DNA from: Acinetobacter phage phiAB441
Strand: one strand, 5' to 3'
DNA length: 64,000 bases
Sequence record: PV420835.1
The notes under the pieces are model-generated. The model did not search any database, had not been told where the DNA came from, and saw only the letters and a program-made list of their open reading frames with translations. Shown piece after piece: positions 18,164 to 64,000 of the stretch. Within the stretch, counting starts at the first letter, position 1; each line of letters opens with the position of its first letter. A program made the position numbers and the translations under genes.

Positions 18164-19042
18164 ATGATTAAAATTTTAAATCCAGCAGTAGTTAAGATCG
18201 TTGGTAGCATTGCAAGTGTTCTTTTACGTCACTTAAAGTATTGGAAAGATTCATCAGGTAAGGAAGTTGTGTATCGTACAAACACACAACTTGTAGACGA
18301 CTTAGAAGGGATGTTTTCAGCATCTCAGATTCAACGTGCTAAAAAGAAACTTATTGAAAATGGATTAATTGAAATCACTTATGGGAAAGGGCATGACAGA
18401 ACAACACACTACTCACTTACAAAAAAAGCTTTAGACTTGTTAGATAGCTCTAAAACTTCATCAGAAGCCCATAGTGATAAGAAAGAGGGAAAAGGTAGTG
18501 ATGTACCACACACTCCTAAAACATCGACACAACGTGCTAAAACAATTGTTAAAAAGGGTGCTATTGTACACTCATATGGAAATGTTAAATCAATGAAAGA
18601 ATGTTTTGAAGAAGGAAGTGATAATAAGAATGCAGATCGTTCTTTAACTCTATCTGAACGACTAGCTCTTATGAAAGGGGAAAAGATTGATTTAAACAAG
18701 CATAATGAATCTTTAGAGCAATGTTTAGATGAAAGTGGTACAAACGTACCAGACAATACTAAAACTGTCTATACGGAGCTTACAGACGACTTAAATGAGA
18801 TGTGTAATGGTAACGAAGAAGATGAATACTTAAACACTCTATCACAACATGATTACGATGAATGTGATCTTGCTATGTTGAATGCTTTGAATAGAAAACA
18901 AGAACATTTGACGGATGATAAGTTGACAGTTGGTCAATTATTAGGTAGTCTAGGTTCTGTATATAAATCAGGTGTGTCAGAAGCTAGAGAGAAAATCTAT
19001 AGAATGTCACAACTACAAAATGGTTATGTGGAGGATTATTGA
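18164..19042 (+). CDS. early protein, putative DNA-binding (N-terminal winged-helix-like), acidic C-half
   Basis: 292 aa first gene after promoter; N-terminal basic segment, Asp/Glu-rich C-terminus. Confidence 0.4.
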   Translation: MIKILNPAVVKIVGSIASVLLRHLKYWKDSSGKEVVYRTNTQLVDDLEGMFSASQIQRAKKKLIENGLIEITYGKGHDRTTHYSLTKKALDLLDSSKTSSEAHSDKKEGKGSDVPHTPKTSTQRAKTIVKKGAIVHSYGNVKSMKECFEEGSDNKNADRSLTLSERLALMKGEKIDLNKHNESLEQCLDESGTNVPDNTKTVYTELTDDLNEMCNGNEEDEYLNTLSQHDYDECDLAMLNALNRKQEHLTDDKLTVGQLLGSLGSVYKSGVSEAREKIYRMSQLQNGYVEDY

Positions 19043-38118: not shown

Positions 38119-38375
38119 TGCTTTATTTTGTTGTTACTTATATTTTAATTGGAATTGTATTAACTACATTACTTTGTAAGATGGTTAATGATAATTTAGA
38201 TGAGTTTAAATTGTATGTTGGTGTGGAAGACTTCGATGTATATGCTAAGTATCAATGGTTGATATTTTCAGCTTTGGTTTTTATTACTCCTACATATTAT
38301 TCATATCAATTTACTGTTTGGTTTATTAAGTATTTATTTGGTTTAACGTTGAAATTATTTGGTGGTAAGAAGTGA
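38085..38375 (+). CDS. small membrane protein
   Basis: 96 aa, 3 hydrophobic segments. Confidence 0.45.
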   Translation: MLNLRLERRGLMLYFVVTYILIGIVLTTLLCKMVNDNLDEFKLYVGVEDFDVYAKYQWLIFSALVFITPTYYSYQFTVWFIKYLFGLTLKLFGGKK

Positions 38376-40561
38376 TTCATTCTGTTGTAAAGCGTGATGG
38401 TACAGTTGAAAAATTTGATTTAGAGAAACTTTCAAAGTGGGCAAAGTACGCTACTAAGGTTGGTGGTGATTGGTCGGAGTTAGCAATTGATACTTTTTCC
38501 AAATTACCTGATGTCGTTGAGTCAAAAGATATTCATCAAACTATGATTGATGTTTGTTATTCTAAGAATGATTTGGTCTATAGTCGAATTGCTGCTCGAC
38601 TAGAGATGGCACAAATCAAAAAGAATATTGAACAGAAGTTTGGTTTGATTGATTTTACATTCAAAGAAATTCGCGATGAATTGATTACTTTTGGTGTTTG
38701 GTGTAAAGATACTATTCCAGATTATTCTGAAGCTCAAGAGAAATTATACGAAGAGCTTAAATCAGTAACTTTAGAGTCTTGGCAGATTTCACAATTTTAT
38801 GACAAGTATGCTTTAAAGTTAAATGATATGGTTGTCGAAACACCTGCTGTTGCTGCTATTGGTATCGGTTTGGGTTTACATGGCGATACTCAGGACGCTT
38901 ATGATTTATCTGCTGATATTATTTATGGTAGAACTAATTTACCAACACCTGTCTCTAATGGTGTTCGTAATGGTGACTTTAATGGTGTATCGTGTTGTGT
39001 TATTAGCGCTGGAGATAGTGTTGAGAGTATTGAGGTTGCACAGCATTTAGCTGTTCGAATGACAGCTAAGAAAGCTGGTATTGGTATTGAGTTTACTACA
39101 CGATCTAAAATGGCAGCAGTGAAAGGTGGTCGTATTAAGCACCTTGGTAAACATCCTATTTATGCTCATGTGGATACTGGTGTTAAGGAATTTACACAAG
39201 AGACTCGTGGCGGTAGTGCTACAGTCGGATTCACATGTATTGATCCTGAAGTTTATAATATTGCTTTGTGGAAATCACAGCGTATTGATATTGATCAACG
39301 CTTAGATAAATTAGACTTCAGTTTCATTTTTAATGATGCGTTTCTTGACGCCGTAGTGAGTCGTAGTGATTGGTATTTATTTGACCTTACTGATGCACCA
39401 GAAATTCATAAACTCTTCTATACGGCTTCTGTAAGCGATTATAATGAAGCAGTTAATCGTGAACTTGAGAAAGGAACAAAACACACTAAAGTTTCTGCAT
39501 TGGATTTACTAAAACATGTTTTGATCATTCGTCAAGAAACAGGTCGTATGTATGCATTCAATGTCAGTAGAGCAAACAGTCACACACCATTCTTTGATGT
39601 AATTAGATTATCAAATTTATGCCAAGAGATTTGCTTACCAACTGAAGCTTATACAGATATGGGAGCTTTATATAACGATGATGAGTGGAAGTCTGGTGAA
39701 ACCGCATTTTGTTCTCTAGGTGCTATTGTTCCTGTTAATATTAAATCTGATGAAGAGTATAAACGTGTTGCTTACACTTTGGTTAAGACGATTTCTAAAT
39801 TGATTTACAAGTGTCCTAAGATGACTAAAAACCATCAAAGAACTATGTTGGAGAGAATGTCATTAGGGATTGGGATTACTGGTTTGGCTAATTATCTGTA
39901 TCAACAAGGTTACGACTATGATGGTTCGGATGAGAGTTTAGAGTTTGTTTTTGACTTAGCTGAAAAGCATATGTTCTACTTATATCAGGCATCTATTAAA
40001 TTAGCTGAAGAGTTCGACCATGTTGCAAAAGGTGTTGACTTTAACTGGTTGCCTATTGATACCAAAGTTAATAAGTTTAAACCGAAACAGGATTGGGAAA
40101 GTATTCGAGGTTTACCTAGATTGGATGCAGTATTAGTCGCCCATATGCCAACTGAATCGAGTGCTGTTTATTCAGGTGTTTGTAATGGTTTATATCCACC
40201 ACGTAAACGTATTATCAACAAGAAATCTCGTAAAGGTGTTATTCAATTTATTTGTAAAGAATTTATTGAGGGGAAACATAAATATGCTTGGGATATTGAT
40301 AATATCACCATGAGTAAGTATTACTCTGTTGTTCAAGATTGGACAGATCAAGGTATTAGTGCTGATGACTATTTTGATCCTCGTAAATTCGAAGGTGGTA
40401 AAAAACCTGTCAGTAAGTTGATTAAGGATTTTATCGCACACTTTAAGCTTGGTAATAAAAGTATGTATTACACAAACACTTATGATGATGACGAAGTGTC
40501 GTTGTTTGATTTAATGCAAACCCAACCTGATGAAGTTGATTGTGAAGGTTGTAAATTGTAA
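38372..40561 (+). CDS. nrdA: ribonucleotide reductase class I alpha subunit
   Basis: N-terminal ATP-cone (VVKRDGTVEKFDLEKL), active-site SNLCQEI, C-terminal Cys pair. Confidence 0.9.
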   Translation: MIHSVVKRDGTVEKFDLEKLSKWAKYATKVGGDWSELAIDTFSKLPDVVESKDIHQTMIDVCYSKNDLVYSRIAARLEMAQIKKNIEQKFGLIDFTFKEIRDELITFGVWCKDTIPDYSEAQEKLYEELKSVTLESWQISQFYDKYALKLNDMVVETPAVAAIGIGLGLHGDTQDAYDLSADIIYGRTNLPTPVSNGVRNGDFNGVSCCVISAGDSVESIEVAQHLAVRMTAKKAGIGIEFTTRSKMAAVKGGRIKHLGKHPIYAHVDTGVKEFTQETRGGSATVGFTCIDPEVYNIALWKSQRIDIDQRLDKLDFSFIFNDAFLDAVVSRSDWYLFDLTDAPEIHKLFYTASVSDYNEAVNRELEKGTKHTKVSALDLLKHVLIIRQETGRMYAFNVSRANSHTPFFDVIRLSNLCQEICLPTEAYTDMGALYNDDEWKSGETAFCSLGAIVPVNIKSDEEYKRVAYTLVKTISKLIYKCPKMTKNHQRTMLERMSLGIGITGLANYLYQQGYDYDGSDESLEFVFDLAEKHMFYLYQASIKLAEEFDHVAKGVDFNWLPIDTKVNKFKPKQDWESIRGLPRLDAVLVAHMPTESSAVYSGVCNGLYPPRKRIINKKSRKGVIQFICKEFIEGKHKYAWDIDNITMSKYYSVVQDWTDQGISADDYFDPRKFEGGKKPVSKLIKDFIAHFKLGNKSMYYTNTYDDDEVSLFDLMQTQPDEVDCEGCKL

Positions 40562-61015: not shown

Positions 61016-61765
61016 TTAATAAAAATCTTCTTTATACAAATCACTGATAATCTCATAGCCCTTACATCGACTACCAAACTCATCAGTCAACCAAGCATTT
61101 TTAACATTAAAATAATTCTTAATGTCTGTGCTAACTGGTTTCTTCTTAACGCCAGCTTTATCATAAGCCTTTTTAAGCTCCTCTAACACTCTCTTAACCG
61201 TGTAGCGATTACCAACACGTAATCCTTTTAAAGACTCCTTAATCAACTGGTTGCTCTGGTTAAACTTAACCTGTAAATTATAAGCGTTAGTAAGCTTAGT
61301 TTTATGGAAACCGATAGCTTTGATTCTAGCAATACCAAGTACCTCAACGTATCTTTTGTGTTCTTCTGAGTAGTTGGATATGTTTTCCACAGTTATAATA
61401 TCTCCTGTTTCAATAGCTTTTACGTATTTTTTCAAAAGTTTGCAAAAATCCACCTTGAACCCACATTTCAAATGCTCAAGTGTATTGACTTTGTTGAACG
61501 TTCTGTTAAACGGTGGAGAAAGTCTAGTGATACATGATTCTTCGTACTTCAATGATTCTTCTTTCGAGCTGAAATATTCTACAATTTCCACCGTAATACA
61601 ACCATCCTCTCCATTCTGAAAGAAATAGCGATTTAAAGCTTTATTAGAGCTAGTACCACATAAACAGTGTTTATATCTTTCACCAGAACCTTGTCCAATG
61701 TAAAGAATTTCACCAACTAATCCTCGTGCAAAGTAAACATAAAACTTTTTCAAACTTTTACTCAA
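61016..61765 (-). CDS. GIY-YIG domain endonuclease-like protein
   Basis: FYVYFARGLVGEILYIGQGSGERYKHC matches the GIY-x(9-11)-YIG ... R...H core; basic C-terminal half. Confidence 0.55.
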   Translation of the reverse strand: MSKSLKKFYVYFARGLVGEILYIGQGSGERYKHCLCGTSSNKALNRYFFQNGEDGCITVEIVEYFSSKEESLKYEESCITRLSPPFNRTFNKVNTLEHLKCGFKVDFCKLLKKYVKAIETGDIITVENISNYSEEHKRYVEVLGIARIKAIGFHKTKLTNAYNLQVKFNQSNQLIKESLKGLRVGNRYTVKRVLEELKKAYDKAGVKKKPVSTDIKNYFNVKNAWLTDEFGSRCKGYEIISDLYKEDFY

Positions 61766-61789: not shown

Positions 61790-63088
61790 TTAAATGTTTT
61801 CTTCTTGTAGCCAATCTAAGAACAAGTCCTTCATTCTTTTAGACAAGATAGCAAGATTGATCGGTTTTCCATCTCGTATTGCAGACCTCCAAATAAATTG
61901 AAGCATTTCAGATAAAGCAAACACATCAGCATTTATTGGATATCCATAGTCTTGTAAATAACTAGCAACACTTTGATTCGGGTATCGGTCATAAGCATGA
62001 ATAACACAAGTTTTATGTCTATAAGCATTCGTTGCTCTTGTGTTTGATGCCAACCAACAAACATTCTCAGGACACTTTTGTATCTTTAACTCTGTATCTA
62101 CTAAACCGCTAGGTTTAATCTTAGCTGCTTTTGATTTAACATCCAGATTACTTCTATTCTTTGGGAATGTATAAAGTAAATCGTAACTAGAAGCTCTCCA
62201 TGATCGAGCAATAGAGAGGATATAACCTTCTATGTGTTTAATGTCTTGTGTAGACATCTTTGAATAAGCAGACACAGATAATTTTAAATCTTTCTTCCAC
62301 TTTTGATTAGTTGGTGAATAAAGATTAATTAGTTTAGCTATCTCTTTCTTGCTTGGTACAATTGGAGTAATCTCATCAAATGTTTTATACGGAATACCCT
62401 TCAACTTTAGAAAACTACTCAAAATATTACCTTCAAACATGTATGTTAAAATAATAGCTCTCTTCGATGATGTAATCAATTTGACAGGAAGTTGTGTAAC
62501 AAACATATCATCTTTACGCTTACTAACATACAACATCTTGTTCTGCACATGTCTCTTAAACTTGCTATATTTATGTCTAAAGTCATCAAATGCTTTATCT
62601 AAGTTGCTATCAATATCTTGTCCACACCAAATTAACATTCCATCATTTTCTTGTACACTAATCACACCAAGCTCAATTAATGATGTAACATCTGGTGCTG
62701 AGTAGGCATGATAATCATCAATCATTGCAATCTCTTCATCTACAACCAACACATAATTGTGTTTCTCCATCTCACTAAAATGTTCATCCGTCATGTTTAA
62801 ATACAGATTATGTGTGCATGTAATGTTAGCACCAATCCTCAATAATTCTAACAAGTGACTACCTTTTGTGTCATGGTGGTTATCCTCATCATCTCTTTTA
62901 GTTTCTGGAGCAACAAATCTAGTTAACGGACAAGCTTGCTGAATACGACCACCATCTTTAACTTCTTCTAGGAGTGGTGAAATATAAAAGAATTTATATA
63001 TATGATTATTCTCTTCCATCCATTTACAAATCTTAGATGTTTTATGTGACCCCATCATGGCATCCACAATCTCTACGACATTACTCAT
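61790..63088 (-). CDS. P-loop NTPase of unknown function (first gene of leftward early block)
   Basis: degenerate Walker A VDAMMGSHKTS near N-terminus, Walker B VLVVDEE; 432 aa. Confidence 0.5.
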   Translation of the reverse strand: MSNVVEIVDAMMGSHKTSKICKWMEENNHIYKFFYISPLLEEVKDGGRIQQACPLTRFVAPETKRDDEDNHHDTKGSHLLELLRIGANITCTHNLYLNMTDEHFSEMEKHNYVLVVDEEIAMIDDYHAYSAPDVTSLIELGVISVQENDGMLIWCGQDIDSNLDKAFDDFRHKYSKFKRHVQNKMLYVSKRKDDMFVTQLPVKLITSSKRAIILTYMFEGNILSSFLKLKGIPYKTFDEITPIVPSKKEIAKLINLYSPTNQKWKKDLKLSVSAYSKMSTQDIKHIEGYILSIARSWRASSYDLLYTFPKNRSNLDVKSKAAKIKPSGLVDTELKIQKCPENVCWLASNTRATNAYRHKTCVIHAYDRYPNQSVASYLQDYGYPINADVFALSEMLQFIWRSAIRDGKPINLAILSKRMKDLFLDWLQEENI

Positions 63089-63141
63089 TTATATTATTTA
63101 CCTCATATTATTGAAATAATGAGTATGGTAACACACTACTA

Positions 63142-63170
63142 TTTATAAAACAACTATCGGACATAGTGAA
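63142..63170 (-). promoter_or_regulatory. candidate leftward promoter for minus-strand early block
   Basis: on minus strand TTCACT-17 nt-TATAAA about 50 nt upstream of ATG 63088. Confidence 0.3.
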
Positions 63171-63419
63171 ACACACAAATACAATATTAATTGATTAATA
63201 AATACACAATTTGTAACATTGGCGCAATATTCCTAAGGGGATAAGTAATTACCAGTGTATTTTGTGGTCTTAGTTTTTGGGAAGGTTTACTATAAGGAAA
63301 ATGAATGTAATATATTGATAAATAAAGAATAAAAAAGGAGTTTGTAAGGCACTACCTTACTGAGAATGTAAAACATATTAATTGTACACTTTATGTAACT
63401 AGAATATTAACATTAATAA

Positions 63420-63690
63420 TGACGTAGTATTGACCTAGTATATGAACGTAGTGGTATGACACCTTAAATCAAACACTTATAAAGGAGTAGTGTTATCTTA
63501 GTAAGTAATAGTGAACAAGTGTTTACTGAAAGTGTATTTGTAAATCATCAGTAGTGTACACCAGTAGGTTGTTATAAATACCATCAGTAGTGCATGAGTA
63601 GTGTATTTATAAGGGTTTTGGGAAAGTTGTAGTGTTATCTTTAGTGTATTAGAATATTATTGTAGTGTTGTTGTAGTGATAGTAAAAACT
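63420..63690. repeat. iteron array, about 10 copies of (A)GTAGTG(T)
   Basis: cgtagtgg, agtagtgtt, tagtgaac, cagtagtgtaca, cagtagtgcat, gagtagtgtat, gttgtagtgtt, ttgtagtgttgttgtagtgatag. Confidence 0.6.
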
Positions 63691-63833
63691 ATTTTTAGGT
63701 TAATCACCTTAGACAAATAAATACAACTACTTTAGTGTAAAATAATTTAATAAAACACAAAATAATTAAAATTAATTTAAATTAGTTACAATTACACAGA
63801 AATAAACTTAATTATTATGTTGTTTTGTTGTTG

Positions 63834-63860
63834 TGTTATAATGAACGAAGTGATATAATG
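63834..63860 (+). promoter_or_regulatory. two tandem extended -10 promoters directed rightward
   Basis: TGTTATAAT (63834..63842) and TGATATAAT (63851..63859), both perfect TGnTATAAT, 17 bp apart. Confidence 0.5.
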
Positions 63861-63884
63861 TTTGGTGTTGATGTGTTGTTGTTT

Positions 63885-64000
63885 GTAATTAAATTATCTT
63901 TATTTTCATGTGTTTATGATAATTTTTAGTATTATTTTAAAATTATTTATTTATTTTCATGTATTTATGATAATTTTTAGTATTATTTTAAAATTATTTA
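63885..64000. repeat. 51-bp tandem direct repeat, at least 2.3 units, truncated by window end
   Basis: tattttcatgtgtttatgataatttttagtattattttaaaattatttatt repeated from 63901 and 63952 with a single G-to-A difference. Confidence 0.8.

Follow-up and report, generated by a model that had tools for sequence, protein, structure and literature searches.

What is the repeat-dense, non-coding DNA at positions 63089-64000 of Acinetobacter phage phiAB441 (record PV420835.1)? The window, i.e., the whole 64,000-nucleotide stretch analyzed here, closes with this region, for which an initial annotation made from the sequence alone had proposed a replication origin, a packaging or terminal-repeat boundary, or both. 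The same annotation had reported no open reading frame (ORF) of 60 amino acids (aa) or more in the last 910 bp, and the ORF list agrees: within 63089-64000 the sole ORF is a 34-aa one with a TTG start (63825-63929). We conclude that the region is very probably the boundary of a long direct terminal repeat (DTR) together with an early promoter region. The more complete reading, in which a terminal-repeat junction and an end-formation region lead into the early promoter region, is somewhat less secure but still probable.

The window phage is a B9/TaPaz/Ab5-like Acinetobacter baumannii myophage, and phages of this group share 88-92% identity with its last 9 kb over the shared parts. Region 63089-64000 is itself 73-79% identical to Ab5/Ab7, B9, TaPaz, Ab3-TPeters, and two MD-2021a contigs. 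Their records leave the homologous region unannotated, except for a few tiny hypothetical ORFs in Ab3-TPeters. The relatives used were vB_AbaM_B9 (MH133207), Ab5 and Ab7 (PP763257/8), Ab3-TPeters (PP763256), and Ab15 (PP763259), and three alignments were built: A1, with six phages (the window and five relatives) across the boundary; A2, with the window, Ab5, and B9 over the DNA to its left; and A3, with an element found inside the terminal repeat and the promoter downstream of it. Wider searches added little: the terminus block had no match in IMG/VR, the GTDB genomes, or the JGI metagenomes, a protein-based locus search of IMG/VR returned one distant contig (protein 60% identical), and Rfam gave no RNA family at an E value of 1 or better over 62900-64000.

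The evidence for a boundary comes from three relatives deposited by two submitters. The records of Ab5, Ab3-TPeters, and B9 carry exact terminal duplications at both ends (3,864, 3,972, and 4,915 bp, respectively, with 0 mismatches), and in their gene tables one set of small genes appears twice, once at either end of the record. The left boundaries of the three agree within 10 bp, at one conserved sequence. In Ab5 and Ab3 the duplication starts after ...TTAATCACCTTAG (longer form ...GTAGTGTTAATCACCTTAG), while that of B9 starts 10 bp earlier and ends 10 bp later at the right boundary (L002 6632 and L007 4915 versus L001 6649 and L004 3864), an offset that could come from a difference in method or from a real difference in cut position. 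With a slash marking the boundary, the window reads ...GGTTAATCACCTTAG/ACAAATAAATACAACTACTTTAGTGTAAAATAA... at this place, with junction letters TCACCTTAG/ACAAAT, and is identical to Ab3 from -13 to +70. Since the window matches the relatives' duplication start exactly across 63712/63713, the first base of its DTR is predicted at 63713. Near-identical boundary sequences were used in the same way in the phiCbK study, where experimentally confirmed termini were transferred to relatives (PMC3556154); the reasoning on boundary conservation applied here to 63712/63713 is the same. Of the two proposals in the initial annotation, the packaging or terminal-repeat boundary is therefore the one that gains, through exact duplications in Ab5, Ab3-TPeters, and B9 that start at a sequence identical in the window. 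The features at the junction are as follows.

63713 (63703 if placed as in B9), + strand: predicted first base of the DTR, equal to the physical left end of the genome, assigned by homology
63697-63818, + strand: nearly invariant block, GTTAATCACCTTAG/ACAAATAAATAC...AACTTAATTATT, spanning the predicted DNA end
63713-63818, + strand: A+T-rich leader at the start of the DTR, 87% A+T, with one TAGTG at 63733

No other non-coding stretch of the region is as conserved as the block at 63697-63818, where identity across the six phages reaches 94% and 85% of columns are invariant. The flanks of this block are 37-62% identical, with a right side that aligns poorly, and the rest of the region ranges from 37 to 80%. 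The A+T block that had been delimited at 63700-63830 proved to be 83% A+T, rising to 87% within 63713-63818, versus 68% in the whole window. Folding of the single-stranded DNA around the predicted end (63660-63780) gave a structure no better than those of shuffles (z = +0.27). The window does not contain the sequence found at the right boundary of the relatives and shows one copy of the DTR start at most, whereas in the records of the B9-like relatives the terminal duplication is visible. Judged from the placement of the predicted boundary, the A+T block, the extended -10 promoters, and the 51-bp repeats lie inside the DTR, and an array of short repeats lies outside it.

63425-63684, + strand: one-way array of 14 TAGTR units (10 TAGTG and 4 TAGTA), outside the predicted DTR

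This array corresponds to the cluster of about 10 GTAGTG-type iterons placed by the initial annotation at 63420-63690. Exact GTAGTG occurs eight times, always on the + strand (63448-63678), and the - strand of 63393-63972 has zero copies of the pentamer. Besides the further + strand TAGTG at 63733, TAGGT variants are found at 63565 and at 63696, the latter just past the array. The background of TAGTG is 0.97 per kb per strand, so that 11 copies in 320 bp correspond to a Poisson P of ~5e-14, and shuffles of 63400-63760 never exceeded 4 copies when mononucleotides were permuted, or 8 under first-order Markov resampling, versus the 11 observed. The consensus of 89 copies is approximately yWK-TAGTG-TW. 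All units share one orientation on the unique side of the predicted boundary, and the last of them ends 28 bp before it. Neighbors are mostly 10-13 bp apart, over a full and irregular range of 6-43 bp. Over the array as a whole the phasing is weak, with P = 0.04 in the window and no significance in four of the five relatives, and it is inconsistent between phages; for this reason binding to one face of the helix is not claimed.

The array is a property of the group, as the search for the repeats in related genomes made clear: each of the five relatives carries 14-17 TAGTR units on the + strand over the 330 bp that lead up to the boundary, and the - strand of this stretch shows few copies or none. 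Three positions (-29, -18, and +20) hold a copy in every relative, while the others turn over; the window retains only the +20 copy, and its -18 copy has changed to TAGGT. The only other small GTAGTG cluster in the window consists of three + strand copies within 155 bp (39213, 39353, and 39363), and this cluster (39213-39368) falls inside a 729-aa ORF (38372-40561). Two other roles for the motif were considered and dropped. TAGTG as a genome-wide promoter or regulatory motif was rejected because its density outside this region is that of the background. A Chi-like or anti-nuclease role of the oriented pentamers, whose orientation would suit entry from the right end, has nothing to support it and was set aside because a 5-mer is expected by chance about once per kb.

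This TAGTG array has no earlier description, although such a layout is nothing unusual in long-terminal-repeat phages. The closest cases are the DTRs of B9, Ab5, Ab7, and Ab3-TPeters, in which the boundary sequence, the A+T leader, and the TAGTG array are homologous to those of the window. In Ab15, an AM24-like phage with an exact 5,018-bp DTR, a repeat with a 24-bp period and 3.3 copies (L012 4871-4963), of the GATAACCTCT-AGGTTTC type (GGAGATAACCTCTAGGTTTC), stops 22 bp short of the left boundary, and the 600 bp upstream contain several further short tandem repeats. Phage T7 has 11 one-way CCTAAAG-type heptamers at ~13-bp spacing (175-355) directly after its 160-bp left repeat and a looser set of CCTAAAG before the right repeat. 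In T7, as in the window phage, a short motif repeated in one direction sits in the unique DNA directly against the terminal repeat; the T7 early promoters for host polymerase are a few hundred bp away from its left end. However, the T7 repeat is 160 bp versus ~4-5 kb in the B9-like group, and its dense array follows the left repeat, while here the array precedes the DTR and none comes after the right boundary in Ab5 or B9. Packaging in T7 is tied to its own RNA polymerase (PMC3276506); the window phage, unlike T7, is not known to encode one.

The unit genome of kayvirus 812 closes with an array of 35-bp tandem repeats, variable in copy number, that directly precedes the right long terminal repeat (LTR), and the LTRs hold host-takeover genes with sigma-70-type promoters (PMC6445280). 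Kayviruses K and 812 thereby resemble the present case, with an array at the end of the unique genome next to a terminal repeat that carries early genes and host-type promoters. Theirs is a true tandem 35-bp repeat, in contrast to a core of 5-6 bp here, and there is no relationship in sequence or protein. In SPP1 (pacL, pacC, and pacR) and P1 (pac hexamers), short repeated elements flank the terminase cut, in a headful mode of packaging with permuted ends. The B9-like relatives are similar in having short repeats to the left (-320 to -18) and to the right (+130 to +190) of the predicted cut but differ by their exact terminal repeats, and the window phage has repeats on one side only. A repeat array abutting the terminal repeat is thus a recurrent feature.

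Could the array lack a sequence-specific function altogether, as a fast-evolving, satellite-like tract tolerated in the non-coding DNA by the boundary? Conservation of the individual copy positions is poor (63481-63696 in A1: identity 62%, with 30% of columns invariant), and kayvirus 812h1 has no analogous tandem array, copy number being variable within the 812 population (PMC6445280). Nevertheless, the pentamer, its strict strand bias, and ~14-17 copies are kept in six phages despite the turnover of copies, and in a second phage lineage (Ab15) an array built on another motif is kept at this place. We regard an idle tract as very unlikely.

The arrangement that we favor is one in which the unique genome meets the long DTR (~4-5 kb in relatives) of a B9-like Acinetobacter myophage. 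The packaging nuclease would cut replicating concatemers at ~63713 to produce the left genome end, and the invariant block may contain the cut or the recognition site. The ~14 one-way TAGTR units upstream would provide a loading or positioning platform for the end-forming machinery, bound by the small terminase or another DNA-binding protein. That the array serves end formation or packaging is suggested by its position and by the analogous arrays of other phages, and we put it forward tentatively, as a possibility that falls short of an even chance. In Ab5, a PHROG search recognized no small terminase next to the large terminase. Because the small terminase is not identifiable in this phage group, an unrecognized packaging factor can be proposed that would read the array and the invariant 122-bp block as a two-part end-formation site; alternatively, the array would double as an origin, with initiation coupled to duplication of the terminal repeat. 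This last proposal is a long shot.

To the right of the A+T-rich leader, the predicted DTR continues with two further features.

63819-63886, + strand: G+T-rich block carrying a pair of extended -10 elements that face rightward (TGTTATAAT, 63834-63842; TGATATAAT, 63851-63859)
63887-64000, + strand: at least two tandem copies of an A+T-rich element (63899-63949 and 63950-64000), from tandem-repeat analysis

The two perfect extended -10 promoters listed in the initial annotation are thus present at 63834 and 63851. They are two of the eight TGNTATAAT matches found on both strands of the whole window, stand 17 bp apart and 120-145 bp inside the predicted DTR, and would start transcription near 63849 and 63866. 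In A1, GTGTTATAATGAACGAAGTGATAT(A/G)ATGTTTGGTGTTGATG recurs in Ab5, TaPaz, and MD-2021a, and in B9 as ...GTTACAACGAACGAAGTGGTATAATG. At least one TGnTATAAT element is kept in all four relatives whose aligned sequence reaches the block, and small rightward genes follow. The DTRs of Ab5 and B9 contain only small genes, mostly rightward, and the + strand of the Ab5 DTR has strong promoter-like sites (11/12 and 10/12 matches) and three terminator-like hairpins. Once the DNA is injected, host RNA polymerase would initiate at the extended -10 and later sigma-70-type promoters, and the small rightward genes of the DTR would be transcribed as the earliest, host-takeover genes.

The 51-bp repeat spans 63899-64000 and reaches the window end, with 2.0 copies at 98% match. 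Its presence had been noted correctly, but its suggested part in a terminal or origin structure does not hold: in relatives the unit is an A+T-rich element upstream of an early promoter, here duplicated. A first search of IMG/VR with the 51-bp unit gave no match. A short-word BLAST of 63860-64000 against the relatives' loci then located it as a single copy, 90-98% identical, in the DTRs of TaPaz, B9, and Ab15 and in IMG/VR contig L009 (L003 7595-7656, L002 7837-7898, L011 1459-1516, and L009 5888-5949). In A3 the unit is an invariant A+T-rich stretch, followed directly in TaPaz, B9, and Ab15 by CTTGCAA-N17-TG(n)TATTAT; the -10 of L009 is divergent. After the unit and promoter, all four share a conserved 5' leader (TCATACCAAGC...) that precedes a gene. 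On the basis of these copies, the window's repeat is a conserved promoter-upstream element that has been duplicated locally, and the promoter that follows should lie just beyond 64000. The window phage differs from its B9-like relatives in lacking the first small gene(s) of the DTR and having this tandem promoter-upstream duplication instead. The ~55-bp element with its promoter and leader is 90-98% identical across B9-like phages, AM24-like phages, and the IMG/VR contig, whose proteins are 47-60% identical. Such conservation across genera suggests strong constraint or a recent exchange of an early promoter cassette. The T-tracts of the unit may form a putative activator of the UP-element-like or bent-DNA kind, or a regulator binding site.

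The five relatives carry a second TAGTG cluster inside the DTR (+130 to +190, 5-6 copies at 10-12 bp spacing), and in Ab5 it overlaps a promoter-like site, TTGACT-16-TATATT. The window lacks a segment of ~150 bp bearing this inner cluster and its promoter. Do the repeats then act on transcription, as operators for a phage-encoded regulator that times or shuts off the early promoters of the DTR and the leftward promoter? In favor of operators, the inner cluster covers and follows the TTGACT-16-TATATT promoter in the five relatives, and the outer array begins beside a conserved leftward TTAATA-18-TACAAT match. However, the window phage has lost the inner cluster with its promoter and yet keeps the outer array, TAGTG is not enriched near other promoters of the window, and the outer array ends ~150 bp upstream of the extended -10 promoters. 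The predicted genome end falls between array and promoters, and therefore on the left-end copy of the DTR the two would not be linked. An operator function for the array is, on balance, decidedly improbable.

The other proposal of the initial annotation, an iteron-type origin, would have a phage initiator bind the TAGTG array and melt the A+T block at 63713-63818, with the boundary coincident or coupled. The layout recalls lambda ori, located inside gene O, and plasmid oriV, where same-orientation repeats also lie beside an A+T-rich block: many repeats in one orientation, with neighbors spaced by 10-13 bp, adjoin a block of 87% A+T, and in the relatives repeats occur on both sides of it. Typical iterons are 17-22 bp long. 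The core of the array repeat, by comparison, is far shorter, only 5-6 bp, the phasing of the whole array is weak, and the invariant part is the A+T block and boundary, not the repeats. The DnaA box TTATCCACA is absent from 63089-64000 at ≤1 mismatch, although some phage origins lack such boxes, and there is no initiator gene beside the array, where the neighboring gene encodes a YonV-like 432-aa protein.

The only initiator-like gene found in the window with PHROG is 45 kb away (18164-19042, + strand, 292 aa), and its protein has weak matches to replication initiation O-like families (E values of 1e-9 to 1e-4), a point in favor of the origin reading. Against it, the gene has a CTAAAAC heptamer cluster of its own that offers a lambda-like alternative site. 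It holds 4 of the 10 + strand CTAAAAC of the window (18450, 18516, 18537, and 18759; corrected P of ~6e-4), all four in identical positions in TaPaz and B9 and three of four in Ab5. The exact 13-mer CAACGTGCTAAAA also occurs twice in this gene. The heptamers encode a repeated (S/P/A/T)-K-T peptide and are therefore only a lead: they may mark a lambda-like origin inside the gene or be a mere trace of the repeated x-K-T peptide. Cumulative GC skew turns near 63-64 kb, as the initial annotation had suggested looking for. The skew is positive over the + strand genes of 1-52 kb and negative over the - strand genes of 52-63 kb; because it tracks gene orientation it carries no information on replication, and the turn was rejected as evidence for an origin. 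With no DnaA box, an initiator-like gene 45 kb off, and a confounded skew, the replication origin is unsupported, and we consider it unlikely at this locus.

Left of the array, the DNA leads through a short conserved stretch to the leftward genes.

61790-63088, - strand: 432-aa ORF, first gene of the leftward block, of unknown function; a neighbor of the element and not a part of it
63089-63392, - strand: upstream leader of the 432-aa gene, common to Ab5 and B9 only
63344-63360, - strand: hairpin GTAAGG-loop-CCTTAC, then AAACTCC and a T-run on that strand
63381-63410, - strand: weak sigma-70-like match TTAATA-18-TACAAT, 9/12 consensus positions, a consensus match only

The leftward genes begin at 63088, as had been annotated, with the start of the 432-aa ORF. 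Its protein matches phrog_2467 (SPbeta YonV-related, E value of 1.5e-73) and has no Pfam match; a search for an exact match to it found none. By tblastn it is 99% identical in Ab5 and B9, 62% in BS46, 48% in AM24-like phages and TaPaz (47% for the protein of the AM24-like Ab15), and 28% in SPbeta yonV. Column identity of the leader is 90% in A2 (the window, Ab5, and B9), and homology to TaPaz, Ab3, and MD-2021a begins only at ~63393 (A1), with a block at 63393-63480 conserved in the six phages (80% identical, 72% invariant). The stem of the hairpin is conserved and its loop variable (TAGTG in the window, CATTA in Ab5, TGGTG in B9; A2). The hairpin is present in the minimum-free-energy fold, the fold of the 101-nt region being unexceptional (z = -1.5), and stands on the - strand ~25 nt downstream of the conserved TTAATA-18-TACAAT match. 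It could belong to a short leader, an attenuator, or an insulating terminator. Across 62900-64000, promoter-like matches are about as numerous as chance would give (10 observed versus 9.3 expected). Of the divergent promoters described in the initial annotation, the rightward side stands, with its two extended -10 elements, and the leftward side has the weak TTAATA-18-TACAAT match alone.

The module left of the terminal region differs among the phages. That position is occupied by the YonV-like 432-aa gene in the window, Ab5, and B9 and by a rightward DNA helicase and a 269-aa gene in Ab3-TPeters and MD-2021a, and TaPaz has gp175/gp176 (window 61790-63392 compared with L005 3490-5990, L010 3492-5990, and L003 3895-5800). 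Homology resumes at one point (~63393) in all of them, which points to a gene-exchange hotspot. Next to the 432-aa gene, a 249-aa ORF (61016-61765, - strand) has an N-terminus, FYVYFARGLVGEILYIGQGSGERY, that by eye resembles a GIY-YIG nuclease motif; it gave no Pfam match, and its one PHROG match, to a family of unknown function, is marginal.

Several points weigh against a terminal-repeat junction with an end-formation region. The boundary is assigned by homology to deposited boundaries, with a single copy of the DTR start in the window, and the B9 boundaries are displaced by 10 bp at both ends. As to the method by which the deposited boundaries were fixed, the TaPaz paper is silent, and no papers cite the Ab3, Ab5, Ab7, or Ab15 accessions. 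An array followed by an A+T-rich block is a classic origin layout too. The inner TAGTG cluster means that the repeats are not purely outside the DTR and may act on transcription, and the right DTR boundary of Ab5 or B9 has no TAGTG array. No protein is linked to the array, and PHROG gave no match for the proteins next to the large terminase of Ab5. Finally, kayvirus 812h1 does without a boundary array, so that such arrays can be dispensable (PMC6445280).

No new class of system is opened by this locus, although a 51-bp element kept across genera whose proteins are 47-60% identical is notable in itself. Exact terminal repeats argue against headful packaging and generalized transduction, a point of relevance to therapeutic-phage dossiers. 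Together, the array and the invariant block would offer a compact cis-element for studying how ends are found in long-repeat phages without a recognizable small terminase. For the phage itself, the genome should be opened at ~63713, with the 4-5 kb downstream taken as the DTR that holds its earliest genes.

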